In this document: piece after piece, positions 11,026-58,000 of the stretch
Numbering within the stretch: position 1 is the first letter of the stretch
How the letters are laid out: each line of letters begins with the position of its first letter
DNA from: Acidimicrobiia bacterium
GTDB lineage: Bacteria; Actinomycetota; Acidimicrobiia; Spongiisociales; UBA5794
Direction of reading: 5' to 3'
DNA length: 62,472 bases
Assembly (NCBI GenBank): GCA_030066875.1
Contig: JASJAS010000008.1
Coordinates: 1-62,472 of the forward strand
The notes under the pieces: generated by a model
The model's database searches: none
The model's input: only the letters and a program-made list of their open reading frames with translations
Told to the model about the DNA's origin: nothing
Made by a program: the position numbers and the translations under genes

Positions 11026-13854
11026 GTGGGTAGTAACAAGATCATCGTCAAAGGTGCTCGCGAGCACAATCTGGCCAACGTCGACCTGGAGTTGCCGCGC
11101 GACCAGCTGATCGTGTTCACCGGCCTTTCCGGATCGGGCAAGTCGTCGCTTGCCTTTGACACGATCTACGCTGAAGGGCAACGCCGCTATGTCGAGAGCC
11201 TCTCTGCCTATGCCCGCCAGTTCCTCGGGCAGATGGATAAACCAGACGTCGACTTCATCGAAGGCCTATCTCCTGCCATTTCGATAGATCAGAAGACGGC
11301 CAGTCGCAATCCGCGGTCGACCGTCGGCACGGTCACTGAGATTCACGACTACCTCAGGCTGTTGTACGCCCGTATCGGAGTGCCGCATTGTCCCAACGAT
11401 GGATCGGTGGTCGCTCGGCAAACCCCGCAACAGATCGTCGATCAGATCCTCGATCTCGCTGAGGGGACCCGATTTCAGATCCTTGCCCCGGTAGTCCAAG
11501 GTCGCAAGGGCGAGTACGAGTCTCTGCTGTCGGACCTTGCGAAGGATGGCTTCAGCCGAGCCCGTATCGATGGAGAAGTGCGCGACCTCACGGACGACGT
11601 CAAGTTGGACCGCTATTTCCAGCACACCATCGAGGTGATTGTCGACCGCCTGGTTCGCAAGGAAGGAATCGACCGGCGGCTCACCGACTCGCTCGAGACG
11701 GCTCTTTCGCTGTCAGAAGGAGTCGCGCTCATCGACATCATCGATGGGCCCACTCTGACGTTCAGTCAGCACTTTGCGTGTCCGCAGTGCGGGTTCTCGT
11801 TCGAGGAACTCCAGCCGCGCAACTTCTCGTTCAACAGTCCCTACGGGGCCTGTACGGCTTGCAGCGGGATCGGGACGCGCTATCAGGTCGATGCCGAGCT
11901 GGCTATTCCCCAGACCGACAAGAGCATTGGAGAAGGCGCCATCGCACCTTGGGCCGGTCGGCACCGCATGCGGTACTTCCAGCGGCTACTCGGGTCGGTT
12001 GCCGAGGAAGAAGGCATCGATCTCGATAAGCCGTTCGCCAAGCTATCGCAGCGACACAAGGACATCTTGATCAACGGCGCCGGCGACAAGCCGTTCACTG
12101 TCACGTATCAGAACAGATTCGGGCGGCGCCGTCGCTATGAAACGACTTACGAAGGGGTAGTTCCCTGGCTGCAGCGTCGCTACAAGGATGCGGAATCCGA
12201 CGCTGCACGCGACCAGTACCGCCAGTTCATGCGCGAGGTCCCCTGTGGCGAGTGCCATGGAGGGCGGCTCAACCCAATCTCGCTTGCCGTCACTGTGGGC
12301 GGCATGGGCATCTTCGACCTGTCGTCGTTGCCGCTGCGGCGTGCGGTGAATTGGCTCGACGATATCGAGCTCTCTGAGCGTGACGCACAGATTGCCCGGC
12401 TGGTAATCAAGGAAATCAGAGCGCGGCTTTCGTTCCTCGTCGATGTCGGGCTCGACTACCTCACGCTCATGCGGTCGGCCGCCACCCTGGCAGGCGGCGA
12501 GGCACAGCGAATTCGACTCGCCACTCAGATTGGTTCTGGTCTAGTCGGTGTTCTCTACATTCTCGACGAGCCTTCTATCGGTCTCCACCAGCGCGACAAC
12601 CGGCGGCTCATCGAGACCCTGCTTCGGTTGCGCGACCTGGGTAACACGCTCATCGTGGTCGAACACGACGAGGAAACCATCCGGGTTGCGGATCACATCG
12701 TGGACATAGGGCCCGGCGCCGGAGCGCACGGAGGCAAGATCGTGGCCGCCGGGAATCTCGACACCATTACGTCCTCCGCCCAGTCCATCACCGGTGACTA
12801 TCTGGTGGGGAGAAGATCCATCGAGGTGCCGTCGGTACGACGGCTGGGCACCGGGGGTGCCATCGTCGTAGAGGGTGCCGCGGAGAACAATCTCCAGGAC
12901 ATTGCGGTCGAGTTTCCGCTTGGCAAGATGACGGTGGTGACCGGCGTATCCGGGAGCGGCAAATCGTCTTTGGTGCAGGAGATTCTCTCCAAGGGCCTGC
13001 ATCACGACTTGCATGGCTCGCACGCCTTGCCGGGCAAGCATCGAAGGATCGTCGGCGTTGACCAAGTCGACAAGGTCATCAACATCGATCAGTCGCCGAT
13101 CGGCCGGACCCCGCGATCCAACGCAGCTACCTACACCAAGGTCTTCGACCGGATCAGAGAACTCTTCGCCGCCACTCCTGATGCACGAATGCGCGGCTAC
13201 AAGCCGGGGCGGTTCTCGTTCAACGTGGCCGGCGGCCGCTGTGAAACCTGCAAAGGTGACGGCACGATTCGCATTGAGATGCACTTCCTCCCCGATGTCT
13301 ACATCCCCTGCGAGGTCTGTAGGGGGAGGAGGTATAACAGGGACACCTTGCAGATCGGTTTCAAAGGTCACTCGATTGCCGACGTGCTCGAGATGTCGGT
13401 CGAAGAAGCCCTTCACTTCTTCGAGAATCAGCCTCGCATTGCTCGAGTTCTCGAGACCTTGTTCGACGTGGGCCTTGGGTATATCCGGCTGGGTCAACCG
13501 GCGCCGACCCTCTCCGGTGGCGAAGCGCAACGCGTCAAGCTCGCATCCGAACTGGGCAAGCGATCGACCGGCAGCACCTTCTACATCCTCGACGAACCGA
13601 CTACAGGACTTCACTTCGAAGATGTGCGCAAGCTGCTTGGGGTTCTGCAACGCCTCGTCGACGCAGGCAACACCGTGGTAGTGATCGAGCACAACCTGGA
13701 TGTTGTGAAGACGGCAGACTGGATCATCGATCTAGGTCCGGAGGGTGGCGAGGACGGCGGCCGGGTCGTCGCCGCCGGAACCCCGGAGGAGATCATCGCC
13801 GTTCCGGAGTCGTACACCGGTAAGTTCCTCCGGGAGTTATTGGTATCGGCGTGA
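11026..13854 (+). CDS. uvrA: Excinuclease ABC subunit A
   Basis: [30 protein letters not shown], two ABC ATPase modules, zinc fingers, LSGGEAQR; GTG 11026 has a GGAGGA RBS (alternative TTG at 10999). Confidence 0.99.
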
Positions 13855-41200: not shown

Positions 41201-41348
41201 GAGCATCGACGCTCGGCCCGATCAGGCACGGGCAATCCACGCCTATGCGAATGCACTCGAGGCGGCCGGACGCCACGAGGAGAGTCAAGTCCAGCTGAAC
41301 ACGGCAATGGAGATGTTCGGCGCCATGGGTATCAGCCCCGACGGGTAA
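38247..41348 (+). CDS. Class III adenylate/guanylate cyclase - AAA/STAND ATPase - TPR protein
   Basis: VTALFCDVVGST, AQFAGDSILAIFG, LGDTTNVAARIQ; GDPGVGKSRL Walker A, EDVHWAD Walker B, EGNPFFIEE; helical repeat tail. Confidence 0.93.
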   Translation: MQNGRQTRASERRVVTALFCDVVGSTSLAETMDPEDWAEIVNEVVAGMVVCIERYGGTVAQFAGDSILAIFGAPAAHEDDPYRAVRAGLDIIANVGRGSDYAVDISVRAGIHTGLVVVGDLTAGDLNVYAALGDTTNVAARIQALAEPGSLLVSEDTHRLVANDVVVRELGPVEMKGKKEPVAVFEIRDARDVSSRRRGIPGFESPMVGRAAELAQLVEMVGYSQAGSGRVGVIVGDPGVGKSRLVAELHDVVVGIGGARWVLGRCAAYDQHRPYHLAASIVLALAGVTESDDPEVISKALEDIAQPAFGEDSASLGHLLQLLGLADGHPDDDPDVLHKQYDQALFHLLSATAAVSNPLVLVCEDVHWADASSAELLAGLLERIRQTTTTLIIVTRPERQSHGWEMVVTRAERELGEAFVESKLQPLDDRESRQLVANLLEIESLPADVRALVLSRTEGNPFFIEEVVRMLVDRGLIEKQGDRWVASAEISTLDVPETLHGLLASRIDSLPAEVRRVARIAAVIGRRFEARLLNAVLSKTGEDPVPAELNTLEARGVVKLVAVQPELAFSFRHALIHDVAYESILRKERRSLHAQVGAALAVLYNDRLEEHAPTLARHYEEAGDHDEAVRYLVMAGGTARARHAMPESHRFYSRALELIETDPDSPAGQRIDVALSMAAAGMRFVPGLETLAALDAVRAEAEQIGDPDVLARVYALSLEVRAMMEESYADPGFRETMDRAYALAPRVHQPDLRAFLEGMMGQALRSADEYAKAAQLVGGSVGPLEEAGRVGEAGFNAALTADVEASRGRFAEADRWIRHACELAEESGNPNVIADVELMRGRIAAARGELETALAHTQLGTETAEGAGNIECTLVGNFLIADQHLRSGDAAAAIPYLERTFELGEYCNAEAMVGLGQAWLATAKARLGELNADDYSRPLEMAQAGGSRSGEAAVRLQRAIAVAGEPSSSWKQVVADFERAIELFESIDARPDQARAIHAYANALEAAGRHEESQVQLNTAMEMFGAMGISPDG

Positions 41349-42516: not shown

Positions 42517-44196
42517 TTGAGGCTCAGACGTAAGCTGCCGAATCTCTATCCAATGATTGTTTCGTCGTCTACGCGTGCGGGCGCAGATCGCACCGCGCAC
42601 GACATGGATCGCCTCGAGGAAGTCATTGTTCGGGTCACGACCTGGGTGTCATTGGCCTTCCTCGTGTTGCTCCTTGCCACGGGAGCCATCACCGGTGATG
42701 AGAAGTTCTTCGTGCGTGCGCTCAACCCGCTATTGCCGGGCGCAGCCGGAGTCTGGATGCTGCTCAAAGAGCAGCCGCGAGCCCTAGTGCAGCTCGGCGC
42801 CGGCGCAATCGCGGTGGCGACGACCACCGGCCTGGCCGACATCGCGTCACGGCCGGGGGCACTGCTCGGTTTGCTCAGCATGGGGATCGTGGGTGCGCTG
42901 TTGGTGCGGCGCCACGTGGTGATCTACCTGGTAGTGGCCGGCACAGCGCTGTTCGCCGTATCCATGTGGTGGGCATCGAGCGACCTATCACCACGCGACC
43001 GGGCGGTGGAAGCCGCCGGACCCGTATTCGCCCTACTGCTGACTGCAGGTCTGGTCATCTGGTTGAAGCGGGCCCTGCTAATGGAGGGCGAGCGTCGTCA
43101 CGAGGCGGCTAAGGCGCTTGCCGCTTCTGAAGAGCAGTTCCGGACGGCGTTCGAGACCTCGGCGGCAACGATGGCTCTGGTTCGTGCCAGTGACTTGCAG
43201 TTTCTCAGGGTGAACCAAGCTGGGTGTGAGATGCTCGGATACACCGAGGACGAGCTATTGAGAATGACTGTTCCTGAGGTGATTCATCCCGACGATCAGG
43301 TAGCCAGTCGAACACGTATGAGACAACTGCTGGCAGGAGAAGAGCAGGGTACGAGAGGTGTAGTTCGCTACCTCAAGAGCGACGGGTCGATCGTCTACGG
43401 GCTCGTGTCGGCGGCACTCGTCAGCGATGCGGACGGAAACCCGAGTCATTTCGTGGCGCAACTGGTTGACACAACGGACCAGCATCACGCCGAGCAGCGC
43501 CTCATGGATCTGCTCGCCTCCCGGGACGAGCTCATCGCGTCGGTGTCGCACGAGCTGCGGACACCGCTCACCGCGGTTCTGGGTTATGCGAGTCTGTTGC
43601 TCGAAGAGTTGCCGGGGACACCCGAAGGCTACGAGGACATGCTCCGCGAGATCTTCAGTCAGGGCCGAGACCTCGTCGGAATCATCGAAGACCTGCTCGT
43701 CTTTGCGCAATCCGACTCAGACTCGATAACGGTCAAGCCGGTTCAGCTCGATGTGCGCGATCAGGCGACGCTGGTGCTGGAGTCGCTACGGACCGAGCTC
43801 TCGGTGGATCACATCGATCTGGTTGGCCCGCGGGTCGAAGCATTCGGAGATCCGCTACGAGTCCGGCAGGTGCTGCGGAATCTGCTCTCCAATGCCGTGC
43901 GCTATGGAGGTAGCTCCATCGTCGTCGAGATGTCCGAATCCAATTCCACGGCTCGCATCGTGGTCTCCGACGACGGCTCAGGAGTACCCCGGGAGGATCG
44001 CGAACGGATCTTTGAGCCGTATCAACGGTCCCAGCCGAAAGATGGGTTGACGGCTTCCATTGGCGTTGGGCTTACCGTCGCCCGCCGGCTGGCCCGACTC
44101 ATGAACGGCGACCTCACCTACGAGTATCGGGACGGACGGAGCCGATTCTCGCTCTCGTTGCCGAAGTACCAAGCTCGCAAGCTCCGCTCAGCCTGA
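42517..44196 (+). CDS. Orphan TM-PAS sensor histidine kinase (HisKA)
   Basis: About 6 TM helices, PAS (VNQAGCEMLGY, IHPDD), ASVSHELRTPLT, NLLSNAVRY, DDGSG, GVGL; start uncertain; no adjacent response regulator. Confidence 0.92.
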   Translation: MRLRRKLPNLYPMIVSSSTRAGADRTAHDMDRLEEVIVRVTTWVSLAFLVLLLATGAITGDEKFFVRALNPLLPGAAGVWMLLKEQPRALVQLGAGAIAVATTTGLADIASRPGALLGLLSMGIVGALLVRRHVVIYLVVAGTALFAVSMWWASSDLSPRDRAVEAAGPVFALLLTAGLVIWLKRALLMEGERRHEAAKALAASEEQFRTAFETSAATMALVRASDLQFLRVNQAGCEMLGYTEDELLRMTVPEVIHPDDQVASRTRMRQLLAGEEQGTRGVVRYLKSDGSIVYGLVSAALVSDADGNPSHFVAQLVDTTDQHHAEQRLMDLLASRDELIASVSHELRTPLTAVLGYASLLLEELPGTPEGYEDMLREIFSQGRDLVGIIEDLLVFAQSDSDSITVKPVQLDVRDQATLVLESLRTELSVDHIDLVGPRVEAFGDPLRVRQVLRNLLSNAVRYGGSSIVVEMSESNSTARIVVSDDGSGVPREDRERIFEPYQRSQPKDGLTASIGVGLTVARRLARLMNGDLTYEYRDGRSRFSLSLPKYQARKLRSA

Positions 44197-44294: not shown

Positions 44295-46937
44295 GTGGGC
44301 GGCATGGTTCCGCTTCGAGTGAACCACGAACAGCGCACGTACGTGTTCACTCAGCCAGAGGTCACCATCGGCCGTGAAGCGGGTGTAGACGTCGTCATAG
44401 ATGTGCCCGACGTGTCACGGGTTCACGGCATCGTCAGATGGATCCATGACGAGTGGCATTTCACCGACAATTCGAGCCGCAACGGGAGCTTCCTGGCGGG
44501 GAGTCGTGTCAACGAGGTGGTGATCGATGGTTCGCTCACGGTCAATCTCGCGGGTCGAACCGGACCGGAGGTCACGTTCTCCCCAGCGATCGATCTTGCC
44601 ACGGAGGTGACCGCTACGACATCTCGGCTCGTGGGCGATATTGGCGTCGTTTCCGCAGTGCACGACACGAGGAGGGACTCGACAACTCTGGGGCGGGCTC
44701 CGGACAACGACATCGTGGTCGACGACCTTGAGGTCTCTCGCCACCACGCCGAGATGAGGACATCGACCGAGGGCCAGCTCGAAATCGTTGACCTGGGGAG
44801 CCACAACGGCACCTATGTCAATGGTGTTCAGGTGGAACGAGCCACGCTGAACGACTTCGATCTCGTGACTGTCGGTCACCACATGTTCCGGGTTCTCGAC
44901 GGTGTGCTAGAAGAGTTCGTCGATGCGGGCGCGGTGCAGTTCGAAGCCATTGGTCTCGGGGTGGAGCTCCCGGGGGGTTTTCGGATCCTGGATCAGGTCA
45001 GCTTCACGTTGCCGGAACGTAGCTTGGTCGCGGTCCTGGGGCCAAGCGGTTCCGGCAAGACGACCCTGTTGCGGGCGCTCACCGGGTTCAGTCCCGCCAC
45101 CGAGGGTCAGGTCATCTACGGCGGCCGGGATATGTATGCCTCGTACGCAGATGTGCGGCAACGTATTGGCTACGTTCCCCAGGACGACATTCTCCATAAC
45201 GAGCTCACCGTGCGCCAGGCACTGCGTTACGCAGCCCGGCTGCGCTTCCCGCCTGATGTACCGGCCGAAGACATCGCCGAGCGGGTTGACCAAGTCATCA
45301 ACGAATTGGGACTGGCGCATCGCGCCGACGTCGCCATCTCATCGCTCTCCGGGGGTCAGCGCAAACGAGCCTCGGTGGGGTTCGAGCTACTGACGAAGCC
45401 GTCGCTGCTGTTCCTCGACGAGCCGACCTCAGGACTGGATCCGGGATACGAGCGCGCCCTGACCCAGTTGCTGCGGGAGCTGGCAGACGGCGGCAGAAGT
45501 ATCGTCGTGGTCACTCACAGCGTGCAGAGTCTCGACCTGTGCGATCGGGTCGTCATGCTGGCACCGGGCGGCCGGTTGGCCTACTTCGGGCCACCTGACG
45601 AGGCTCTTCGCTATCTCGGCTGCGACTCGTTCGCCGAGGCGTATGTGCTGCTTGCCGACCCGGACGGACCGGATTGGCACCAGAACTACCAGGCAAGTCC
45701 GGCTCATCGAACCTATGTAGAGCTGCCCAACGCAGGCACCCGTGTGGAAGAGGCTGAGGCGCCAGAGGCGGCCGCACCAGTCCGGCAACGCGGCTGGTTC
45801 CGCCAATACCGCACCCTGACACGCCGCTACGCATCGGTCATCTGGCAGGATCGCAAACTCACCACCTTGCTGGCATTGCAGGCCCCTTTGCTGGCGCTGT
45901 TGATGCTGATTGCGATGGGGGAGGGTCGTCTCGCCCCGAGGACCGGACCCGGACTGTCGACGGCCTCCCTGGTCCTGGCGGTGCTTGTGCTGGCCGCCAC
46001 CTGGCTGGGTATGTCGAACTCGGGTAGGGAGATTGCCAAGGAAACCGCAATCTATCGGAGAGAGCGGGCGATTGGCCTGTCCACCTCGGCGTATGTCGCT
46101 TCCAAGGTGACGGTGCTGGCCTTCATAACGCTGTTGCAGACCACTGTTCTGGTAGTCGTCGGCCTGGCACGTCAGGGGGTCTCATCGCAGGCTGCTCTCA
46201 TTGAACCGGGCATGCTCGAATTGGTGCTTGGGGTCGGGCTCAGCGGCATCGCCGCGGTGAGTCTGGGGTTGCTGATATCGGCCTTGGCCAAGACACCGGA
46301 CCGCGCCATGAGCCTGCTCCCTGTGGTGCTTATCGTGCAGCTGGTTGTTGCCGGCGGTTTCAAGGACATGGCCGAGAAGCCGCTGCTGCGTGAGATCAGC
46401 TATGTGGCAACCGCCCAGTGGGGCTTCTCCGCGGCGGCATCAACCGTCGACCTCAACGACCTGCAGTTGCCCAACGACTGCCTGGCAGAAGTAACCCGGA
46501 TCGACGACGAGACCGGGATCGAGGATCGGGCGGCATCGTTGGCGCGCTGCGCGTTGTCTGATGCGGCGCTCATGCAAGCGATGCAGACCGTGATCGCACG
46601 ATCCCAAGAACCGCTACCGATCGAGGCCGACTGTGTTACCCAACTCGAAGGCCTCGATGCCGCAACCGTGGAAGGAATGAGTTCCGCGGAGATCGATGAG
46701 GCGCTGCTGTGTACGGCGGCTCACCCTGAGGCGGCGACCGCCGCGGTTGCGGACGAAACGGCTCTCGAGACTCTGGCAGCCCGGGCGGGACCGGTAAACG
46801 ACAATCATCCATTTCGCTTCTGGGATCAGACACCGCGTCACTGGCTCATCAACATGACACTGCTCGGGTTGCTCACAGCGTTCGGATTGGTCGGTACGTG
46901 GTGGGTGCTGCGCCGACGCGATCCTGAATCGAGCTAG
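44295..46937 (+). CDS. FHA-FHA-ABC ATPase-permease fusion transporter (Rv1747-like)
   Basis: Two FHA domains (IGR/VSRVH/SRNG; LGR/VSRHH/SHNG), GPSGSGKT, LSGGQRKR, DEPTSGLD, ABC-2 membrane domain (AKETAIYRRER). Confidence 0.95.
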   Translation: MGGMVPLRVNHEQRTYVFTQPEVTIGREAGVDVVIDVPDVSRVHGIVRWIHDEWHFTDNSSRNGSFLAGSRVNEVVIDGSLTVNLAGRTGPEVTFSPAIDLATEVTATTSRLVGDIGVVSAVHDTRRDSTTLGRAPDNDIVVDDLEVSRHHAEMRTSTEGQLEIVDLGSHNGTYVNGVQVERATLNDFDLVTVGHHMFRVLDGVLEEFVDAGAVQFEAIGLGVELPGGFRILDQVSFTLPERSLVAVLGPSGSGKTTLLRALTGFSPATEGQVIYGGRDMYASYADVRQRIGYVPQDDILHNELTVRQALRYAARLRFPPDVPAEDIAERVDQVINELGLAHRADVAISSLSGGQRKRASVGFELLTKPSLLFLDEPTSGLDPGYERALTQLLRELADGGRSIVVVTHSVQSLDLCDRVVMLAPGGRLAYFGPPDEALRYLGCDSFAEAYVLLADPDGPDWHQNYQASPAHRTYVELPNAGTRVEEAEAPEAAAPVRQRGWFRQYRTLTRRYASVIWQDRKLTTLLALQAPLLALLMLIAMGEGRLAPRTGPGLSTASLVLAVLVLAATWLGMSNSGREIAKETAIYRRERAIGLSTSAYVASKVTVLAFITLLQTTVLVVVGLARQGVSSQAALIEPGMLELVLGVGLSGIAAVSLGLLISALAKTPDRAMSLLPVVLIVQLVVAGGFKDMAEKPLLREISYVATAQWGFSAAASTVDLNDLQLPNDCLAEVTRIDDETGIEDRAASLARCALSDAALMQAMQTVIARSQEPLPIEADCVTQLEGLDAATVEGMSSAEIDEALLCTAAHPEAATAAVADETALETLAARAGPVNDNHPFRFWDQTPRHWLINMTLLGLLTAFGLVGTWWVLRRRDPESS

Positions 46938-47569
46938 TCGAGAGGTTCTAGCCGCCACTCGCTGAAGCGGAAGTTGTGATCGCCGACGGCCACCCGGTCG
47001 AGTTCCAGGATCGGGGTTCGGGTCACTCGCTGACCGTTCAGATAGGTTCCGTTGTGACTGCTCAGGTCGACGAGTTCGTACTCGTTGTTGGGGGTCACTC
47101 TGATCTCGGCGTGATGCCACGACACGGCTGGGTCTTCGACAACTACGTCGTTGTCCGGAGCTCGTCCGATTGTGATCACTTGGGCGGACTTCCGCAGCGA
47201 CCGGGTTGCCCCGGTAGCCTCCGGTTCCGAGGCGCGGGGGAGCGCGGTGGTCTTCTCACTGAGATAGGGCAAGGCTGGGGTCAGGGTGAGGAAAGGTCCG
47301 GTGGGGTCTCCGAGAGCGATCTGCATAGGCGCTCGGATTTCGACCCTGGTGACCCGGGCACCGTTGAGAAAGGTGCCGTTGGCGCTGTCCTTGTCTTCGA
47401 GGATCCAGATGTCATCCTCGAAGGCGAGCACGGCGTGCCTTCGGGATACGCGGCGGCTGGCAACGTGCAATGCAGCATCGGGATGACGCCCGATGGTCAC
47501 TATCTCATCGGGCCGGAAAGTGACGGTGGTTCCGTCGTGGGTCACCCTTATCAGCCCAGCGTCGTTCAT
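46934..47569 (-). CDS. Stand-alone tandem FHA-FHA protein
   Basis: IGRHP..VSRRH..SANGTF and IGRAPDND..VSWHH..SHNGTY; start set at ATG 47569. Confidence 0.92.
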   Translation of the reverse strand: MNDAGLIRVTHDGTTVTFRPDEIVTIGRHPDAALHVASRRVSRRHAVLAFEDDIWILEDKDSANGTFLNGARVTRVEIRAPMQIALGDPTGPFLTLTPALPYLSEKTTALPRASEPEATGATRSLRKSAQVITIGRAPDNDVVVEDPAVSWHHAEIRVTPNNEYELVDLSSHNGTYLNGQRVTRTPILELDRVAVGDHNFRFSEWRLEPLD

Positions 47570-47667: not shown

Positions 47668-50600
47668 ATGGCGCAATCCGCACCTCTCGATTTGGGGATT
47701 CCCGGTCTCGAAGATGCGATGCTCTTGGGTCGAGGTGGGTTTGCGGTGGTTTATCGGGCGTATCAGCCTGCCTTCCGACGCACAGTTGCGGTCAAGGTTG
47801 TCTCGGTCACCGAGGTCGATGAACTGACCCGCGAGCGATTCCGCCGCGAGTGCCAGGCAATGGGTCTGCTGTCGGAGCACCCATCGATTGTCACCGTGCT
47901 TGAGGCTGGCTTTCTCGACGATGGTCGTCCCTTCCTGGTCATGGCATACATGCCGGAAGGCTCACTGCAGGACCGGCTGCGCCAAGGCCCCCTCGGATGG
48001 CAGGAAGCGACCCGGATCGCGGTGAAACTGGCTGGAGCCCTTGGGACCGCCCACCAGGCCGGGGTGCTGCACCGTGATGTGAAACCGGCCAATGTGCTCG
48101 TATCGCAATACGGCGAACCGCAACTGGCCGACTTCGGCATCGCCCGCGTGGCGGGCGGTCAAGAGACGTCGTCTGGGGTCATCACCGCTTCGTTGTCCTA
48201 CGCGCCTCCGGAGATCGTCGATGGGCAGCGCCCGTCTGTAGCTTCCGATGTGTACTCGCTGGGAGCCACAGTCCATGCGCTGATGACTGGAGCCGCTCCT
48301 TTCTGGAAGGATCGCGAGGACTCGATTGCCGCGCTGTTGAATCGGGTGATGAATCACCCGCCGCGTGATCTCAGGGAGTTCGGTGTCCCCTCCAACGTAG
48401 CTGAGGTGCTCGAGCTCACGATGGCGAAGGATCCTCAGGATCGGCCGGCATCCGCTGCCCAGTTCGGCAGGCTGCTCCGTCTGGCTGAGGACGAGAACGG
48501 GTTGCGCCCTACCCAGATGACGGTCTACAAGCCGGCTGACGAGCCACATCCCCCGACTCCGCCGGTCGAAGCACCACCGACCGAAGTAGCGCCCAGCATC
48601 GAGGATTCCGAGGACTTCACCGACTCACCGACGGATATCGTCGACACCGACGAGATGCTCACTGCCGCCGCCACAGCGACGGCAGCTGCCACATCGATCA
48701 ACGAGACCCCATCAGTGGACGGTCCGCCGACCGGTACCGTCGAGCAAGATGCAGCCGAAACCGAAGTGATCGACGAGCAGCAGACGGCTGAAGTTGTGGC
48801 TCCGGTTGCGGATGGGCTGGTGGCGGCGCCGGACGTGGAGGCATCGGAGCCCGTTGTGGAACCCGAGATGGCCCCTACTGCCACGGTGGCTGCCGCCAGC
48901 GCTGCAGCGCCCCCGGACGCGACGACTGACCTGCCCGCCGGGCCCGAGGCCGGTCAGGAACCGGAGGCGCCGGGCCGGCGCCGTGGCCTTTGGCTTGGGG
49001 TGGCGGCGGTTGTGGCGCTGCTCGCGGTGGTCGGCGGGTTCTTCTTGACCAGAGGCGGCGACGCCGGGCCTATAGACACGACGATACGAAGCACAAGCGA
49101 CGGGAGCTCAGATTTCGAACCGCCGCCTTGGTGGACAGCCGACCCGGTTCTCGGCTCGGCGGTGCTGGTTGATCATGAATCGCATGTAGACCGAAACTTC
49201 GAGCAGCTCGCTGTAGGCTCGGGGCCGGTGACCGGCGAGCAGCGCTGGGTCGCACCCACTCCGCCGGCGTGGTCGCCGGAGTTCTATCACGGCTGGATGC
49301 TCGTAGGATTGTCCGAGGGCGAACAGGATCCGTACACCGAACAGCAGATTGAAGAGAAACGCTTCTTTCGCGAGCCGGCGTCGGCCGAAGGCGACTATGC
49401 CGCCGTAGTCCGCTTCACGCCCACGCAGCTCGACGGCTATCTCCTGTTCAACCTCGAACACAACTCGGCAGACGGCAGTGAGCACCGGATGTTCTCGATT
49501 GATCTCGGGACCAACAGCTCGGGGTTTGCTTTCACCACTCAAGATGGGGACCAATCCGGCGATGACCCCTTCCAGCGGCCAATCGAACTCGAGGTCGATA
49601 AGTCGTACGACTTAGCCCTCGTGGCGACTACAACTGGGGCATTCCGGGCTTTGGTCTGGCCTTCCGGAGAGATGGCGGCCGGAGTCGATGAAGTCGCCGG
49701 AATCGAAACCGAAGCCGGACATGAGTTCGTCACCGACAACTGGATCGCAAGCATCGGGGTGGGTCCGGGTTCGGCGATATCGATAGACGAGTTTTGGGGC
49801 TTCCGGCTTCCGACCCCAGGCGGTGATGCGGCGGTGCCGGACGACGAGGCCGAGCCCGGGCCGACGATTACATTCGATTTCCCGCAGTGGTGGCTCGCCG
49901 ACCCTGACTGGTCGCGGGCTGAGCTGGTCGATCACGAAACCCACGACAGTTACAACTGGGTTGTCGGCGACACCGCGGCCTCTGTGTGGCACTCGCCCCC
50001 ACCTCCGCCGACGTGGCGTGGGACGTTTGGAGGGGGGCTGATGACGATTGCGACGGAAAGGGGAGAGTCCGACAACATCGGTATTCCGATTGAGAGCAAA
50101 CGCTTCTGGCGGGCACCAACCACTTCGACAAACGAGTATGCAGCGGTGTTCCGTTTGATCGTCAACGAGCTCGGTGACGGGTTCCAGATCTTCATTGAGA
50201 GCGGGGCCTTCGACGCAGGCTTCTTTCGCAACGTCGTGCTCGTCGTAGACGGAGAGGGGCAGGTGTTTGCGCATTACTCACAGGGTGATGACGACTCTTT
50301 CCTAATCCAAGACCTTGACAACCCCATGAAGCTCCTCCCCGGCACCTCTTACGATGTTGCACTCTTCGCCGAAGGAGGTGGCGTCTTCAACCTCCGCCTT
50401 TGGCCCACCGGCCAGTCGCCACAGGAGCTAGAAGATGTCCCAGGAATACGGCTCGAACTAGGGGATGAGTTCGTGGTGACAGGGGGGTGGGACCCCGGCA
50501 TGGACGTTGTCGCCGGGGCATCCGTTTCCATTGACGAGTACTGGGGCTTCGAGCTACCCGGCGCTGGCGATGAGGCGCCGCTGGCGTCAGCCGATGTCGG

Positions 50601-51522
50601 TCTGGTGTTCGACATTGGTGGTCGCGGCGACCAGTCGTTCAATGACGCCGCCGCCGCAGGACTCGACCAGGCCACCGCCGAGCTCGGCATCCGCCCATCC
50701 GAAGCCTCGGCCAACCAGGACGGTTCGAACCGGGAGGAACTGTTGGCACTGCAGGCCGACGAGTCCGATCTGGTGTTTGGTGTCGGTTTCTTGTTTGCCG
50801 AACCGATGTTGAGTGTTGCTGAGGCATACCCAGACGTGAGTTTCGCCATCGTTGACGACTCGTCGATCGATCTGCCCAACGTCGCCAACCTGGTGTTTGC
50901 AGAGGAGGAAGGCTCTTATCTTGTCGGTGTCGCTGCCGCGCTCAACAGTCCGAATCTGCGGGTGGGTTTCATCGGGGGAGTCAACATGGAGTTGATCCAG
51001 CGGTTCGAGGCCGGGTTCACCGCGGGAGTCACCGCGGTCAACCCGCTCGTGACCGTCGATGTGCAGTACCTGACGGAACCCCCCGACTTTGCCGGTTTCA
51101 ATGACCCGGCGGCGGCCCGAGTTGTCGCCGAGGCGATGTATCAACGCGGCGCCGATGTGATCTACCACGCCGCCGGCGGATCCGGGGCCGGGCTGTTCCA
51201 GGCGGCCAAGGACTACTCGGAGGCCAACAACACCAAGGTCTGGGCCATCGGGGTGGACTCCGACCAGTATTTGACAGCGGATGAGGGAGTGCGGCCCTAC
51301 ATCTTGACTTCGATGATGAAACGGGTCGATACCGCGGTGTACACAACAGTCCAGGACTTCGTGAGCGGCAGGTTCACGTCGGGAACCACGGTCCTCGACC
51401 TTTCGGTCGATGGGGTCGGCTACGCCACCAGCGGCGGGTTCGTGAACGCCATCATCGACCAGCTCGAGGACTACAAAACCCAGATCATCTACGGAAGTAT
51501 CCAGGTACCGACTGTGCCTTGA
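47668..51522 (+). CDS. Hanks-type Ser/Thr kinase - acidic linker - TM - two ~230 aa repeats - BMP (PnrA/TmpC-like) binding domain
   Basis: LGRGGF, VAVK, HRDVKPAN, DFG, YAPPE; TM at 48988-49050; repeats at 49114-49812 and 49873-50559; BMP motifs GGRGDQSFND, EEEGSYLVG, IYHAAGGSG, AIGVDSDQ, SMMKRVD; leaderless TACACT-N6-ATG. Confidence 0.93.
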   Translation: MAQSAPLDLGIPGLEDAMLLGRGGFAVVYRAYQPAFRRTVAVKVVSVTEVDELTRERFRRECQAMGLLSEHPSIVTVLEAGFLDDGRPFLVMAYMPEGSLQDRLRQGPLGWQEATRIAVKLAGALGTAHQAGVLHRDVKPANVLVSQYGEPQLADFGIARVAGGQETSSGVITASLSYAPPEIVDGQRPSVASDVYSLGATVHALMTGAAPFWKDREDSIAALLNRVMNHPPRDLREFGVPSNVAEVLELTMAKDPQDRPASAAQFGRLLRLAEDENGLRPTQMTVYKPADEPHPPTPPVEAPPTEVAPSIEDSEDFTDSPTDIVDTDEMLTAAATATAAATSINETPSVDGPPTGTVEQDAAETEVIDEQQTAEVVAPVADGLVAAPDVEASEPVVEPEMAPTATVAAASAAAPPDATTDLPAGPEAGQEPEAPGRRRGLWLGVAAVVALLAVVGGFFLTRGGDAGPIDTTIRSTSDGSSDFEPPPWWTADPVLGSAVLVDHESHVDRNFEQLAVGSGPVTGEQRWVAPTPPAWSPEFYHGWMLVGLSEGEQDPYTEQQIEEKRFFREPASAEGDYAAVVRFTPTQLDGYLLFNLEHNSADGSEHRMFSIDLGTNSSGFAFTTQDGDQSGDDPFQRPIELEVDKSYDLALVATTTGAFRALVWPSGEMAAGVDEVAGIETEAGHEFVTDNWIASIGVGPGSAISIDEFWGFRLPTPGGDAAVPDDEAEPGPTITFDFPQWWLADPDWSRAELVDHETHDSYNWVVGDTAASVWHSPPPPPTWRGTFGGGLMTIATERGESDNIGIPIESKRFWRAPTTSTNEYAAVFRLIVNELGDGFQIFIESGAFDAGFFRNVVLVVDGEGQVFAHYSQGDDDSFLIQDLDNPMKLLPGTSYDVALFAEGGGVFNLRLWPTGQSPQELEDVPGIRLELGDEFVVTGGWDPGMDVVAGASVSIDEYWGFELPGAGDEAPLASADVGLVFDIGGRGDQSFNDAAAAGLDQATAELGIRPSEASANQDGSNREELLALQADESDLVFGVGFLFAEPMLSVAEAYPDVSFAIVDDSSIDLPNVANLVFAEEEGSYLVGVAAALNSPNLRVGFIGGVNMELIQRFEAGFTAGVTAVNPLVTVDVQYLTEPPDFAGFNDPAAARVVAEAMYQRGADVIYHAAGGSGAGLFQAAKDYSEANNTKVWAIGVDSDQYLTADEGVRPYILTSMMKRVDTAVYTTVQDFVSGRFTSGTTVLDLSVDGVGYATSGGFVNAIIDQLEDYKTQIIYGSIQVPTVP
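49114..50559 (+). repeat. Two tandem copies of an unrecognised ~230 aa extracellular domain
   Basis: Shared motifs WW.ADP....A.LVDHE.H, IE.KRF.R.P, YAAV.R, SYD.AL.A, WP.G, GI..E.G.EFV, SIDE(F/Y)WGF.LP. Confidence 0.9.
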
Positions 51523-51577
51523 GCGTGGTGCGGAGGGGTGACGGCTAGTCTCGGCTGTGCGCGTTTGCGGAGGGTGG

Positions 51578-53881
51578 ATGGAGTTCAGGATTCTCGGGTC
51601 GCTCGAGATCGAGGCTTCTGACGGATCACCGCTGCAGGTTTCAGGACCCAAGCAACGCGGTCTTCTTGCATTGCTCGTGATTCATGCGAACGAAGTCCTC
51701 TCCACCGATCGGATCATCGATGCGCTCTGGGGGGAGGAGCCTCCGTCAGGAGCCCTGAACTCGTTGCGCTTTCACATTTCCAAGCTCCGGTCGGCTCTCG
51801 GGGATGAGCAGGAGAGGCTGGCAACCAAGGGGCCCGGCTACGTGTTGCTTGCAAGTCCCGGGGAAGTCGACGCGCAACGATTCGAATCTGCAGTGGCCGA
51901 GGCGGTTGCACTGGTTCCCGACAACCCGGAAGCGGCTGTCGCTCGATATCAAGACGCCATCGAGTTGTGGCGGGGTCCCACCCTCGCCGATTTCGAATAC
52001 GAGGACTTCGCTCGCACCGAAATCGCCCGATTGCGGGAGCTGCGTCTCGCCGCCGTCGAGGGAAGGTTCGAAGCAGAGCTCGCTGCCGGTCGTCATGACG
52101 AGTTGGTAGGAGAATTGCGCACACTGGTTGACGAGCATCCCCTACGCGAGCGGCTCTGGGCCTCACTGATGACTGCGCTGTACCGCAGTGGCCGCCAGGC
52201 GGAAGCTCTCCGGGCGTATCAGGAAGCGCGCTCCACGCTGGGTGATGAACTCGGCATTGAGCCCTCCGAGGAGCTACGTGATCTCGAGGAGAAGGTGCTC
52301 CTCCAGGACGAATCAATCAAGACCCCGGACGCCCCTCGTCGCGCGCACAACCTTCCCGCCAGAGTCAGTCGCTTCGTTGGCCGTGATCAGGAGATCTCGA
52401 CCATCGGCAAGCTGCTTGGTCGGAGCCGGTTGGTAACGCTCATGGGCGTTGGTGGTGTCGGTAAGACGAGTCTTGCTCTCGAGGTTGCCGGGCGTCACGT
52501 CGACGAGTTCCGGGACGGTGTCTGGTTGGTCGACCTGGCGACGGTGACGGACGCTACTGGGGTGTTGGTTGCTGCTGCGGAAGCCCTTCGAGTGCGCACC
52601 CGATCTTCCGAGCACATCCTCGCCGACATCCAGCTGCGGATGGCCAACACCGAAGTGCTTGTCATCTTGGACAACTGCGAACACGTAATCGCTGCCGCGG
52701 CTGATCTCGCCGCCGACCTCCTTGCGAAGTGCCCTGGAGTGAAGATTCTGGCCACAAGCCGGGAACTGCTGTCAGTTCCCGGCGAGATCACCTTTGGTGT
52801 GTCGCCGATGACGCTCGGCGATGACCATGTTGCGGGCGATGCTGTCGCGCTGTTCACCGACCGGCTTGAGGCCTTCTTGCCGGGCACCGGCCTAGGCGAT
52901 GAAGAGCAGCAGACGGTGTACCGGATTTGTCGTGCGGTCGATGGCTTGCCTCTCGCAATCGAGCTCGCCGCCGCCCGCACCCGTGCCCTCTCGCTCGACG
53001 AAGTGGAACGTCGCCTGAGTGACCGCTTTGCACTGCTGGCCGGGGGCAGCCGAACCGCAGCCCCCCGGCAGCGAACTCTGCGGGCAACCATCGACTGGAG
53101 CTACGACTTGCTCTCGGACTCCGAGCAAGGGCTCTTTGCCGTGTTGTCGGTGCTGCCGGGCTCGTTCACCGCCGAAGCTGTGGAAGCGATTGTTCGAGCA
53201 GGCAAGTGGGAAGATGATGCGCTCGACCTGCTCGCAGCCCTGGTAGACAAGTCGTTGGTCGCCCGGATCGGCGGCCGCTACTACCTGCTGCCTACGTTGC
53301 GGCGCTACGCCGCCGGGAAGGTAGACGGGAAAGCGATAGCACGAACGAGGCGCGTCCTGGTCGAACACTATGCCGGACTCGCTTCCCGGCTCGAAGACAG
53401 CTTCTTTGCCACAGAAGAGCCTCAGTTAGCCGAGCACGTTGTCGACGAACGCTCCAATATGCGATCGGCCTTGGCGTGGTCAATGGAAAGCGGTGACACG
53501 GATGCGGCGCTGACTGTTGCTGCGTCTCTGGCCTTCTATTGGATCCGATCGGGCGTTTGGACAGAGGGCTGGTTGAGACGGGGAGTAGGTGCCGGGGACG
53601 ATGTTCCACAGACGGTCCAGCTCCAGGAGGGATTGTTGCTGCTGGAAGGGATTGCGGAACCGGCCGACGCTCTAGCGGCCCTTGCGCAGCTAGTCGAGAA
53701 GGAGGGCGAGGCGGCTAGAGCCACCCGTCTCCTCGGAGCTGCGCACCAGATCCGCCATGACCTCGGCCACGAGCCACCGCGGGCGGAAGACGACCTCGCG
53801 GGCCGTCTGGAGCTCGCTCTAGGCAAGGAGTCGTTTGACGACGAGTGGCAAGCAGGACGAACTGTGGCGCAGCGCCGGTGA
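51578..53881 (+). CDS. SARP (wHTH-BTAD) - STAND ATPase regulator (AfsR-like) with a short C terminus
   Basis: MEFRILGSLE, LVDEHPLRERLW, ALYRSGRQAEAL, HNLPARVSRFVGR, GVGGVGKTSLA, LDNCEHV, DGLPLAIELAAAR. Confidence 0.93.
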   Translation: MEFRILGSLEIEASDGSPLQVSGPKQRGLLALLVIHANEVLSTDRIIDALWGEEPPSGALNSLRFHISKLRSALGDEQERLATKGPGYVLLASPGEVDAQRFESAVAEAVALVPDNPEAAVARYQDAIELWRGPTLADFEYEDFARTEIARLRELRLAAVEGRFEAELAAGRHDELVGELRTLVDEHPLRERLWASLMTALYRSGRQAEALRAYQEARSTLGDELGIEPSEELRDLEEKVLLQDESIKTPDAPRRAHNLPARVSRFVGRDQEISTIGKLLGRSRLVTLMGVGGVGKTSLALEVAGRHVDEFRDGVWLVDLATVTDATGVLVAAAEALRVRTRSSEHILADIQLRMANTEVLVILDNCEHVIAAAADLAADLLAKCPGVKILATSRELLSVPGEITFGVSPMTLGDDHVAGDAVALFTDRLEAFLPGTGLGDEEQQTVYRICRAVDGLPLAIELAAARTRALSLDEVERRLSDRFALLAGGSRTAAPRQRTLRATIDWSYDLLSDSEQGLFAVLSVLPGSFTAEAVEAIVRAGKWEDDALDLLAALVDKSLVARIGGRYYLLPTLRRYAAGKVDGKAIARTRRVLVEHYAGLASRLEDSFFATEEPQLAEHVVDERSNMRSALAWSMESGDTDAALTVAASLAFYWIRSGVWTEGWLRRGVGAGDDVPQTVQLQEGLLLLEGIAEPADALAALAQLVEKEGEAARATRLLGAAHQIRHDLGHEPPRAEDDLAGRLELALGKESFDDEWQAGRTVAQRR

Positions 53882-53949: not shown

Positions 53950-55035
53950 ATGATCCGGCGACTGGCGCTAGTAGCCGTCCTTTTGCTCATCGGGCCTGCT
54001 TGCAGTGGTGACGACCAGACCGTCGCTGAAACCACCACGACTCAGGTGACGACTACGACGGTCGCCGAAGCCGGCCCCACCGAAACCCTGGAGATCGTGC
54101 GCGCCCGGGACCGGCTGGTCTGCGGACACGGTCTAGGGATCCCTGGTTTCGCCGACTTGGGACCGCGCGGCGAGCTCACCGGTCTCATGCTCGATTTCTG
54201 CCGCGCGGTTGCAACTGCGGTTGTCGGAGATGCAGCCAAGGTGGATTGGGTCTCCCTGGAGCCCAGTGAGATGATCGATGTCCTGGCTCAAGGTGATGTG
54301 GACTTACTGACCCACTTCACCACCTGGACCTTCAGTCGGGACAACGCTTCTCCGGTCGATTTCGGTCCAACGTACTTCTTTGATGGACTCGGGATTCTGG
54401 TTGCGGCCGCGGAGCATCAGGCGTCCGATGGCTTGGACTCGCTGCAGGGCGAGACGGTCTGCACCGTCGCAGGGACAACAAGCGAAGCGAACCTACGGTC
54501 GGCGGCTGAACACGCAGGAGTCGTGCTCGACATCCGAACCTTCCCGGACCCCTTCCAGATCTGGGACGCCTTCCGGGCCGGAGAGTGCGAGGCCAACGTA
54601 GGGGAGCGTTCGGTGCTCTTTCTGACGCGCGGCGAGCACTTCGACTCGCCCGAGGATGGGCTGGTGCTCGACCTCGTTCTGGCGCAGGAGCCACTTGGTC
54701 CGGTTTACCGGGAGGGTGACCCCACGTGGGCGGACATCGTCAACTGGACCATGTATGCCCTGCTGGTAGCCGAGGAGAAGGGGCTGACGAGCGAGAATAT
54801 CGAAGAGAGGGTGGCGACGAGCACCGATCCTGAAGTCCTGGCGCTATTCGCTGGCCAAGGGCTCTCGCTGTCTGAGTCGATGGATTTGGATCGCGAGGCC
54901 TTCCGAAGGGTGATCAGGGTTCTCGGCAACTATGACGAGATCTTCGAACGCAACCTCGCCCCGCTGGGTGTGAGTCGAGGGCTGAATGCATTGTGGCGTG
55001 ATGGCGGGCTGATGTTTGCACCGCCGGCGCGCTAG
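53950..55035 (+). CDS. Orphan AapJ/BztA-like amino-acid ABC substrate-binding lipoprotein
   Basis: GPA|C lipobox, DFCRAVATAV, TTWTFSRD, FGPTYFFDG, VCTVAGTTSE, EPLGPV, WADIVNW, GNYDEIFERNL, WRDGGLMFAPP; no permease nearby. Confidence 0.92.
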   Translation: MIRRLALVAVLLLIGPACSGDDQTVAETTTTQVTTTTVAEAGPTETLEIVRARDRLVCGHGLGIPGFADLGPRGELTGLMLDFCRAVATAVVGDAAKVDWVSLEPSEMIDVLAQGDVDLLTHFTTWTFSRDNASPVDFGPTYFFDGLGILVAAAEHQASDGLDSLQGETVCTVAGTTSEANLRSAAEHAGVVLDIRTFPDPFQIWDAFRAGECEANVGERSVLFLTRGEHFDSPEDGLVLDLVLAQEPLGPVYREGDPTWADIVNWTMYALLVAEEKGLTSENIEERVATSTDPEVLALFAGQGLSLSESMDLDREAFRRVIRVLGNYDEIFERNLAPLGVSRGLNALWRDGGLMFAPPAR

Positions 55036-58000
55036 CCCTCCGATCCAGCCTGCCCTTTCGACCAGGCTTCGTACGCCTGCCAGTCGGCTTCGATGAGCGA
55101 GAAGATGGCTTCGACCCCACCAAGTTCGCCGGCGTGGATTTCAGCAATGCCGGCCAGGAAGCTCCCCGGGGTCCCCAACTCGAATATGTACCCGGGGTGG
55201 AGTTCCCGCATTGATCCCGGGCCCGCGGTGCCGATTGCGCCCGGCATAAGGTCCGACCCGTCGAAGCGGAAACGATTCTGCTGCAGCCCGCTGCGAATCA
55301 GCTCCCGGGCGTGTTGCTGAAGGGGGTCTGCAGCGGTAGGGGGGTCATTGTCGAGGTGAGGAAGCGACGACCACAAGCCTGGGTAGTCGGACGATGCGAG
55401 AAAGCGCATCAATTCCCGAATCTCGGGCCTGTCGCGCATCGCCATGATCATTTCGCCACCGCCGAGGATGTAAGGCGACCGTTCTTCGGAGATCGGGGGG
55501 AGCGGAAACATGTCGTAGCCAATGCCGAACTCCAGATCCGGAGGCGGTGCTGGTCCCATGTACATGGCGCAGCCAGGAGGGTCGGAGGCGAACAGGCGAT
55601 GGACCTCCTCGAAGTCGATCAGCAACACGCCTCCTTCGCCTGTTTCCACAAGACCCTCACCAAGTGCGATCTTCGCAAACTCCTCTCCGGCAGACACGAT
55701 GTCCGGATGATCAAACGGTATGTCGTTGCGTATCCACTGGTCGTAGATCGCCGCGCCGGAGTTCGCCAGCACCAGGCTCTCAACCCAGTCGGTTCCCGGC
55801 GCGCCAGTCCAGTGCCCCAGGAATTCGCCCATGCACCATGGGCCCTGGCCATCCGCAGCCAGACGCTCGGTCACCGCCAGCAACTCACCCCAAGTTTGCG
55901 GGACGTCATAGCCGGCGGCGCTGAAGACGTCCGCCCGGTAGAACACGAGGTTCTTGATGCTGAGCTGTGACCACAAACCGAGGGTGGATCCCGAGGTGGC
56001 AGGCCATTCTCCCGATTCGCCGATCGTGACTAGCGAGAGCAAGTAGTCACCGTATCGGTCGCCCAGGGCACCTCGGTCGAGGTACATCCCGATGTCGATC
56101 ACTGTGTCCGTACCAGCGGAGACAATCCGGCCCGGATCGCTTGCGACGACCAGGTCGGGCAAGAACTGTGGTGGGCTGTTCCCGGTAAAAAGCCCAGTCT
56201 CGTATTCGATCTCTATCCCGGTCGATTCTTGGAATTCGCCGAGGGCCGCGGCGAATCCGGAAACCTTGGGTTCGCCCCAGAACGGATCCCGCAGCACTGC
56301 AGTCGTGCCGGCCAGAGGCTGGTTGGGATCTGCGGTGTCACCGTTCGGCTCGACAACGGCCGTCATCAGAACCGTGGTGTCGGAGAGCGAGCATGATGCG
56401 GTCTGGAAGTATGTCAGGCACTCGGAGTTGCCGAAGACCCTACCGTCGGCGGCTAGCGTCAGTGCCTCGGCCACCCACGACAGCGGAACGTCGTATAGCC
56501 CCTGCGGACCGTCCGGGCCGGGACGCACTAACACGGGGCCGCCGTCGGCGGGGTACGGGACTTGCGAGGCTTGCAGCGTCCAATGCATGGCATCCCTGAC
56601 CTCGGGCAGCACCTCACCCGAGATGTCGGCTGTGACTGTTGCGGCCTCGAGGCTCAGCAATGCTGCCAATTGCGGGTCGATCGTCAGTCGATCGAGTGCC
56701 GCAGCAGCCAACTCGCGGGCCCGGGGCGTCGCCTCCACCAATGCCAGCTCCCGTTGCCGATCGGCCTCGCGTCGTTGCGCAACCGCAAAGACCGTAAGCG
56801 TCACCGCCGTCACGATGGCGGTGGCCAGCACGGCGACCAGCCCCCAGGTACGCCGCTTCGACCGCCGCTCGAGCCGTAGTTGTGCCGCTACCCGGGCTCG
56901 CTCGATTTCCTCGGCCTCTTCCCGGGCACCCACACTCGCCTGCAAGAAGGTCCGCTCGGCAGCAGTGAGGGCAATCTCCGAATCCTCCGCCCAGACGGCA
57001 AGCCGGTCGAGGGCGCCACCGCTGAGCAAGTAGTCGTCACTGCGATCCGCTTCGACCCACTCGCGGCATGCCGCAGTGAGTCTGCGGTGGGAGCGAACAT
57101 CATCGCGATGATCCTCGATCCATTGGCGCAGCCGAGACCATTCGCGAAGCAGCGCTTCGTGCGCGACCTCGACGGTCGCCGCTCGGGTCCGCGGATCGCG
57201 ATCGAAAGAGAGCAGACGGTACCTGCCAAAAGCTTCAAGCACGTCCTGTGTTGCCTTATGGAAGCCGAAGATGGAGTCGAGTTCACCCCGCCGCACCCTG
57301 CGCCGAGAGTCCTCGGCGCCCTCCTCGACCGTCACCAGTCTGAGGAAGATTTGACGGGCAGCGGCCTGAGCGGCCGCCGACAAGGATTCGAAGACCTGTT
57401 CGGCCCGGGTCGCCAAAGCTGCCGAGACACCTCCTGAAGCGTCGTAGGCAGCAGCCGGTATCAGGTGCCCGTCGCGGCGCTCGAAGGCCTCGGTCATCGC
57501 ATATTGAACGAGCGGGAGCATCCCGGGCTGACCGGCAACATCTCCGGCGATTCGTTCTGCGAGACCGGGTTCGAGGCCAACGCCAATCGTTCGCGCCGGC
57601 TCGGATATGGCCCGCAGCATCTCTGCTGCGCTGAGTGGCATCACTGTGACCATCTGACTGCGCACCAACTCGCCAAACCCGGCGTACTGAAGTGGCCGGT
57701 CGTAGAAGTCGGCCCGCAACGTGATCACGACGCGAACGCGGTTGCGTTCGTCGGCCACGGTCTCAGCCAGCATGTGGAGAAAGGCAGAGCGGGTCGCTTC
57801 GTCTTCGACCAACGTGAACAATTCCTCGAATTGGTCCACCACCAGCAGCAGCTCTGCGGAGTCATCACGCAGAATGGCCGCCGCTGCTGCAGACAGGACG
57901 GTGAGATCAACGGAGGCGTGTTCGCCGGCTGAGATGCGACGCAATGCCGCGGCAAGTGCATCGAACGGGTACTGACCTGGATACATGGAGACGATGAACC

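Follow-up and report, generated by a model that had tools for sequence, protein, structure and literature searches.

Single-pass Ser/Thr kinases with an ectodomain made of lectin-fold or repeated modules are known from plants, as the L-type lectin receptor kinases (LecRKs), and from bacteria, as the PASTA kinases PknB, StkP and PrkC. To our knowledge, few ligands of bacterial Hanks-type receptor kinases are known, and the ectodomains of these kinases are poorly catalogued. Nucleoside binding is documented for the PnrA family (PMC7093131, PMC13325309), and in Mycobacterium tuberculosis the neighbouring kinase PknF activates Rv1747 via its FHA domains (PMC3138270). We analysed a stretch of 62,472 nucleotides (nt) from an Acidimicrobiia bacterium (assembly GCA_030066875.1, contig JASJAS010000008.1), called the window below, in which one gene encodes a receptor Ser/Thr kinase with two tandem copies of a domain followed by a solute-binding domain of the Bmp (PnrA-like) family. 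The copies make up a new sequence family. Their predicted fold is very familiar, and so is their role, that of a lectin-fold module in the ectodomain of a receptor kinase. The composite architecture of kinase, concanavalin A-like (ConA-like) pair and Bmp domain is rare; it is not a new kind of system.

The interval containing both copies (49114-50559, plus strand) encodes 482 amino acids (aa), and its translation is free of stops. An earlier note on this DNA, made from the letters of the sequence, had described a tandem pair sharing a series of ordered motifs. Alignment of copy 1 with copy 2 by BLASTP bore this out, giving 87 identities in 237 positions (37%, E 2e-38) from end to end, a likeness far beyond chance, with WW.ADP, LVDHE.H, IE.KRF, YAAV.R, SYD.AL, WP.G and SIDE[FY]WGF.LP all in register. 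The aromatic-rich and acidic composition that the note had pointed out was also found (Phe, Trp and Tyr together 12.0-13.5%, Trp ~3.4-4.4%, isoelectric point (pI) ~4.1, no Cys). Acidity is not confined to the copies, as the entire ectodomain is acidic (pI 4.05 for the Bmp domain), and the Trp-rich makeup of the copies resembles that usual for carbohydrate-binding modules (CBMs). Two minus-strand open reading frames (ORFs) within the interval (49108-49554 and 49612-50274) are ordinary antisense frames of high-GC DNA, and were set aside because it is the plus frame that is conserved in orthologues and subject to purifying selection.

The protein, whose residues are numbered here by the 1298-aa ORF, runs from a Hanks kinase through a disordered linker and one transmembrane helix to the two ConA-like copies and the Bmp domain, which is the placement of the copies, between membrane helix and Bmp sensor of a receptor kinase, given in the earlier note. 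The ATG listed in Table 1 (47668) is the gene caller's start, and the orthologues described below (P0004, P0005 and P0026) begin at an equivalent MAQSAPL or MGQSAPL. The kinase domain is of the Hanks Ser/Thr type, with a match to the Pkinase hidden Markov model (HMM) and intact VAVK, HRDVKPAN, DFG and APPE motifs read from the translation. No PASTA repeats were found: there was no PASTA match in Pfam, and the NCBIfam model NF033483 matches the kinase part only (190 bits against a cut-off of 450). The juxtamembrane linker is just 31-47% identical between orthologues. Because RRRG precedes the transmembrane helix, the positive-inside rule places all parts of the protein downstream of the helix, by prediction, outside the cell.

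We searched Pfam-A (2025 copy), NCBIfam 20.0 and the PDB sequences for known relatives of the pair. For the 482-aa interval, no Pfam-A family matched at E values of up to 10, and the only NCBIfam match within it, to DnaJ, is at chance level (E 0.04). Among PDB sequences there was no meaningful match for the copies, either with single sequences or with a profile of six copies, the proteins at E 0.3-1 (CTPR390 and a GFP-like protein) being chance matches. Of a wider set of 21 domain segments none matched Pfam (up to E 5) or NCBIfam, and neither a 21-member profile nor 16 remote relatives gave a meaningful match in Pfam, NCBIfam or the PDB sequences. Nor did any Pfam family of the ConA-like clan (LamG_3, Laminin_G_2, 3keto-disac_hyd/DUF1080, Lectin_legB, Gal-bind_lectin, Glyco_hydro_16) match at E 10 for the interval or at E 5 for the 21 members. 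The statement of the note that the inserted pair is unlike any recognised family therefore stands for curated families, for the copies and for the 16 remote relatives alike. It does not stand in the sense of complete isolation, since a core of ~180 aa belongs to a wider, unannotated family.

This family emerged when 1.84 billion cluster representatives were searched exhaustively by HMMER with the six-copy profile; the search returned only 20 matches at E<1e-3, the best at 1.4e-13, most of them with no Pfam domain over the matched part. A profile made from the window copies and their orthologues gave no match below 1e-30 in this library of representatives (50% identity); the library therefore appears not to include the query or its orthologues, and the count of 20 consequently describes remote relatives only. 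Two of the 20 are not family members, namely P0023, a repetitive protein rich in Thr and Ser, and P0018, which carries LamG_3-like repeats and was not used as a bridge into the ConA clan because hhalign gave a probability of only 12%. A local jackhmmer search started from the stand-alone, 185-aa protein P0019 retrieved both copies of the window protein, and an alignment of 21 sequences has in common the ordered motifs W..G, YR.FG, PG.WY.L, G.F..VW, W and D.Y, with Y165, W182 and W210 invariant. Judged by these shared features of sequence, the remote relatives and the window copies clearly form one family.

Within it, the window copies form a divergent branch that is linked to kinases; the wider family as a whole lacks annotation in the databases searched. 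They are distinguished by a variable Pro-rich insertion and by an extra 45-50 aa at the N terminus (F..P.WW..DP...LVDH), an extension specific to the kinase-linked subfamily. Elsewhere the domain occurs singly in secreted proteins or lipoproteins, in tandem (P0006, P0008 and P0010), fused C-terminally to EEP phosphoesterases (P0013 and P0014) and paired with WD40 repeats (P0016). One member, P0025 (NCBI GCA_021463245.1), is another transmembrane Ser/Thr kinase, with two copies in its ectodomain and no Bmp domain. Its locus (L008, 458-8826) holds a row of three genes for transmembrane Ser/Thr kinases. The ConA-like pair is confined to the product of the third; the products of the other two have kinase parts with ~90% identity and different Thr/Pro-rich ectodomains.

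For the fold, two AlphaFold 2 models were built, one from a multiple sequence alignment of six sequences (predicted local distance difference test (pLDDT) 72, predicted template modelling score (pTM) 0.75) and one from an alignment of 21 sequences (pLDDT 81.7, pTM 0.84), the latter all-beta with ~15 strands. Foldseek against the PDB gave 265 and 158 matches at E<=1e-3 for the two models, and in both lists the best 50 were essentially all members of the concanavalin A-like lectin/glucanase superfamily. They include the CBM66 structure 4b1m, the lectin domain of calreticulin, galectin-7 and galectin-9, the L-type lectins Emp46p and VIP36, C-terminal domains of glycoside hydrolases of family GH43, and a CBM2 of a phage Dit protein. 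The top matches lie at E 1e-6 to 1e-4, with template modelling scores (TM-scores) of up to 0.58-0.66 and a probability of 1.00 for many members; the lichenase 3i4i_B of family GH16, for example, matches with TM-scores of 0.54/0.58 and a root mean square deviation of 3.8 Å. A library of viral structures gave the same picture where its matches are named (LamG, GH16, alginate lyase 2). Because the AlphaFold models and Foldseek return almost exclusively this superfamily, the domain (~225 aa) is assigned as a predicted extracytoplasmic beta-sandwich of the ConA-like jelly-roll type. The assignment is supported at the level of the superfamily, and at that level the predicted structures agree with the guess of a lectin or concanavalin-like sandwich in the note.

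Besides the window protein, three further kinases carry the domain. Two of them, P0004 (Logan run ERR15087774) and P0005 (JGI 3300045962), were the only other proteins with the interval in a word-indexed search of 5.8 billion proteins, and both have the layout of the window protein, with kinase, transmembrane helix, two copies and Bmp domain. The same search with the wider profile gave one extra protein, a result that mostly reflects the sensitivity and the length limits of the search. The third kinase, P0026 (1042 aa), was found by whole-genome searches and is the orthologue from a species of the same genus, encoded in a metagenome-assembled genome of Acidimicrobiia from sediment (genome G010, contig JARFRN010000276.1, locus L006 (G010:C158), 8589-11717). 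It has one ConA-like copy, 62% identical to copy 2 of the window protein, and a longer Thr/Pro-rich stalk where copy 1 would stand. The comparison of P0026 with the other orthologues is thus a case of natural variation in the copy number of the module. The domain was not found in 59 related genomes (13 more from the genus and 46 from its family and order), nor, with the broader profile included, in 300 genomes sampled across the phylum.

The Bmp domain lies well above the gathering score of PF02608 (Table 1). Among PDB sequences it matches a pneumococcal PnrA-type lipoprotein at E 1e-48 and TmpC/PnrA of Treponema pallidum at 4e-41, and its motifs DxGGxxDxSFN, GVDxDQ and LTSxxKR align with identical residues in the nucleoside-binding structures of the PnrA family, so that the binding-cleft motifs are conserved. 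On this evidence the domain probably binds a nucleoside-like small molecule. We surveyed the best 120 of 145 Bmp-containing proteins at E<=1e-10, with lengths of 714-2271 aa; kinase-Bmp fusions shorter than 714 aa lie outside this length filter. The only kinase-Bmp fusions among these 120 were the window protein and two orthologues, all with the ConA-like domain, and 0 of the remaining 117 had a ConA-like domain or a Hanks motif. The remark in the earlier note that kinase-BMP fusions exist is therefore correct for this protein and its two orthologues, but found no further example outside their clade in the survey.

The survey also returned dozens of SARP(BTAD)-nSTAND-transmembrane-Bmp fusions of ~1000-1100 aa from Actinomycetota (P0087-P0143), and it looks as if one-component STAND regulators with a Bmp ectodomain make up a sizeable class. 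Since many of the long Bmp proteins are such receptors, Bmp is common as a receptor ectodomain in the phylum. Further fusions seen were proteins with two to four Bmp domains, SBP_bac_3 with Bmp, and OpuAC with Bmp.

The coordinates of the receptor gene, its parts and its immediate neighbours are collected in Table 1. FHA domains are readers of phospho-Thr, and two genes for FHA proteins lie just upstream of the kinase gene. An FHA-FHA protein is encoded beside the kinase in three of four loci, the contig of the fourth beginning at the kinase gene, and a SARP-STAND regulator follows 20-55 nt downstream of the kinase gene on the same strand in all four. The order FHA-FHA, kinase, SARP-STAND is thereby kept across loci, with nothing shown upstream of the kinase in the fourth. 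The FHA-ABC exporter stands just upstream both in the window and in G010, the genome from the same genus, where its orthologue is 82% identical and occupies the same position; in locus L003 a free FHA-FHA protein takes its place.

Table 1. Receptor kinase gene of the window, its parts and the flanking genes (nt positions in the window; aa positions in the 1298-aa ORF)
Feature	Position (nt)	Strand	Details
FHA-FHA-ABC_tran-ABC2_membrane exporter, Rv1747-like architecture	44295..46937	+	
Protein with two FHA domains, divergently transcribed	46934..47569	-	
Receptor Ser/Thr kinase gene	47668..51522	+	1284 aa from ATG (P0003); ORF open from GTG 47626, 1298 aa
Hanks-type kinase domain, cytoplasmic	47716..48450	+	aa 31-275; Pfam PF00069, E 1.3e-45, 156 bits
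Acidic Pro/Ala/Glu/Thr-rich low-complexity juxtamembrane linker	48538..48984	+	pI 4.05, 22% Asp+Glu
Single transmembrane helix LWLGVAAVVALLAVVGGFFL	48988..49047	+	aa 455-474; preceded by RRRG
Copy 1, predicted ConA-like domain	49114..49812	+	aa 497-729, 233 aa; family-wide core ~nt 49255-49812
Inter-copy linker TPGGDAAVPDDEAEPGPTIT	49813..49872	+	20 aa, Pro/Asp/Glu/Ala-rich
Copy 2, predicted ConA-like domain	49873..50559	+	aa 750-978, 229 aa; core ~nt 49999-50559
C-terminal Bmp/PnrA-like periplasmic-binding-protein domain	50602..51510	+	aa 993-1295; PF02608, E 8.3e-56, 189.6 bits against a cut-off of 24.1
SARP (Trans_reg_C + BTAD)-STAND ATPase regulator, AfsR-like architecture	51557..53881	+	immediately downstream of the kinase gene

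Signalling genes are densely packed in the final 25 kb of the window. Just upstream lie genes for an adenylate/guanylate cyclase-AAA_16-TPR protein and a PAS histidine kinase (38247-41348 and 42517-44196, both on the plus strand). Downstream, on the minus strand (55032-59714), a single polypeptide of 1560 aa combines a winged helix-turn-helix (wHTH)-BTAD part, Pkinase, nSTAND1 and a C-terminal SBP_bac_1 domain, and because it ends in SBP_bac_1 it is a second receptor of the window with a solute-binding domain as its sensor.

The reading that we favour, with a probability of about one half, draws on the topology, the ligand classes, the activation mode and the likely substrates suggested by these data. 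The ConA-like modules would be putative binding modules for a glycan or a polymer of the cell envelope. Their part would be to fix the receptor in place or gather it into clusters, and to present the Bmp domain at the end of the chain, whose probable ligand is a small molecule of the nucleoside kind. If ligand then makes the ectodomain cluster or dimerise, the kinase may undergo trans-autophosphorylation, in the manner of other Hanks-type receptors. Readers of the resulting phosphorylation could be the neighbouring FHA-FHA protein and the FHA-ABC exporter, following the logic of PknF and Rv1747, and also the SARP-STAND regulator, presumed to be co-transcribed, following that of AfsK and AfsR. 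In broader terms, the pair would serve a composite sensor either by binding a ligand, probably a glycan, or as a scaffold.

Several observations weigh against this reading. The likeness in fold is at superfamily level only, with identities of <=16%, TM-scores of 0.35-0.66 and no family singled out, and the hhalign probability of 12% against LamG_3-like repeats is insignificant. The sole PDB match of the profile, to 4mgq, is marginal (E 0.008 over 49 columns); this structure was deposited as glycosyl hydrolase family 10 and is presumably a carbohydrate-binding module, so that the match is consistent with the fold assignment and is not proof of it. The first 55 residues are the least confident in both AlphaFold models. 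Many ConA-like domains bind proteins or serve only as scaffolds. The copies also diverge fast, being 38-39% identical between the window protein and P0004, where the kinase domains are 85% and the Bmp domains 69% identical, and their number varies, with one in P0026 and two elsewhere.

The last two points also fit a passive spacer, in which the ConA-like domains would be rigid beads that lift the Bmp domain through the cell wall, with no ligand of their own and with a copy number free to change. Flexible Pro/Asp/Glu linkers between the domains also suit such a role, and of the folded parts of the protein the copies evolve fastest. Between the window protein and P0026 the kinase is 93%, the Bmp domain 69% and the ConA-like domain 62% identical; the ratio of nonsynonymous to synonymous substitution rates (dN/dS) of copy 2 against the single copy of P0026 is 0.08, a value that is unreliable because dS between the window and G010 is saturated (above 1.2). 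Between P0004 and P0005 the two copies gave 0.48 and 0.2-0.3. As dN/dS is <1 in every comparison and the identity to the neighbouring domains is low by comparison, the copies are under purifying selection yet fast-evolving, faster than the kinase and Bmp domains. Against a spacer stand ~34 positions that are invariant in six copies whose identity is otherwise 30-39%. They include charged and aromatic residues on strands (in copy 1 numbering, the invariant polar and aromatic residues are R100, R125, Y165, D166, W182, D225, E226 and W228) and the motif SIDE[YF]W.F. The core is moreover kept in unrelated architectures that need no spacer, such as the stand-alone secreted proteins and the EEP fusions, and low-complexity stalks, which are cheaper, are already used by this protein and its relatives. 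We consider a mere spacer unlikely, if well short of negligible.

With regard to the history of the copies, a tree groups them by lineage (support 89/92), and an approximately unbiased (AU) test does not reject an ancestral duplication (p 0.085). Between P0004 and P0005 (L003, 2277-6044, and L004, 49-3612) dS is uneven, at 0.09 for copy 1, 0.2 for copy 2, 0.76 for the kinase and 0.66 for the Bmp domain. A pattern of this kind points to a mosaic produced by recombination around the ConA-like region, or to a metagenome assembly that is chimeric there.

The ConA-like pair might instead be a platform that docks the closed, ligand-bound Bmp domain or dimerises the receptor, and so couples binding of the small molecule to the kinase. 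Separate binding proteins are known to dock on the ectodomains of sensor kinases, as in LuxP-LuxQ and TorT-TorS. The domain lies between transmembrane helix and Bmp in every kinase-Bmp fusion found, and the conserved N-terminal cap F..P.WW..DP, present in the kinase-linked subfamily only, could be an interface. However, P0025 has two copies on a kinase without Bmp, and many SARP-nSTAND-Bmp receptors work without the domain. With these two observations on the other side, a platform of this kind seems to us improbable.

A bolder version joins both sensors in a two-input kinase, in which the ConA-like pair would sense a polymer (a glycan of the envelope or the environment) and the Bmp domain a nucleoside-like metabolite. 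Activation of the kinase, which would drive the FHA-gated exporter and the AfsR-like regulator, would require both signals together. The copies would then found a new CBM family whose spread, patchy because the family is absent from the 300 other genomes of the phylum, possibly reflects horizontal transfer. This scheme is speculation, and we hold it for as doubtful as the platform. Scarcely credible is an enzymatic role as glycoside hydrolases or lyases of the GH16 or alginate-lyase type acting on the envelope: the better structural matches do include GH16 lichenases and alginate lyases, but the GH16 motif E-[ILV]-D-[IVAF]-x-E, sought by regular expression, occurs in 0 of 7 copies, so that a GH16-type enzyme was rejected for want of its catalytic motif, neither a GH16 HMM nor any other glycoside-hydrolase family model matches, and the acidic LVDHE.H motif is not kept between orthologues (VVVDRDTS, TVIHHDPH).

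The analysis adds a sequence family, missing from Pfam-A, NCBIfam and the PDB, to a well-known lectin fold, and it describes a kinase ectodomain in which lectin-fold modules are joined in a row to a solute-binding domain, a rare arrangement with four proteins found among billions. The FHA proteins, the Rv1747-like exporter and the AfsR-like regulator are candidate outputs of the kinase. If the modules bind glycan, they would make up a new family of the CBM type and offer a tractable case in which a bacterial Ser/Thr kinase integrates signals; should they serve as spacers only, the result would amount to filling a routine annotation gap in an uncultured lineage of Acidimicrobiia.

Compared with described systems, the surroundings of the kinase gene resemble two known pairs. 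Like PknF and Rv1747, the window kinase stands beside an FHA-FHA-ABC exporter of Rv1747 architecture, and, as with AfsK and AfsR of Streptomyces, a SARP-STAND protein with the architecture of AfsR is encoded downstream of it. In contrast to both pairs, phosphorylation of the neighbours is suggested in the window by gene order only. We know of no ectodomain in PknF or AfsK comparable to that of the window kinase. The C-terminal domain is a true member of PF02608 with the binding-loop motifs, as in the PnrA/Bmp lipoproteins and the SARP-nSTAND-transmembrane-Bmp receptors; unlike in these receptors, it is joined to a Hanks kinase, with the ConA-like pair between Bmp and membrane.

The copies share with the known ConA-like modules (CBM66/DUF1080-type, LamG_3, L-type lectins, galectins and the lectin domain of calreticulin) a predicted two-sheet jelly-roll of ~15 strands, an extracytoplasmic location and richness in Trp, and with LamG-like modules also a hydrophobic-D-x-aromatic motif on the last strand. 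They differ from them in having no match at sequence level, a motif set of their own and the 45-50-aa N-terminal extension with its WW..DP cap. Among the kinases with modular ectodomains, the plant LecRKs carry legume-lectin modules, whereas those of the window protein are of another kind, and its orientation is the bacterial one, with the kinase at the N terminus and the ectodomain at the C terminus. As the number of PASTA repeats differs between species, so does the number of ConA-like copies; unlike in the PASTA kinases, however, the modules of the window protein are not of the PASTA family, and the ectodomain ends in an extra, terminal Bmp solute-binding domain.

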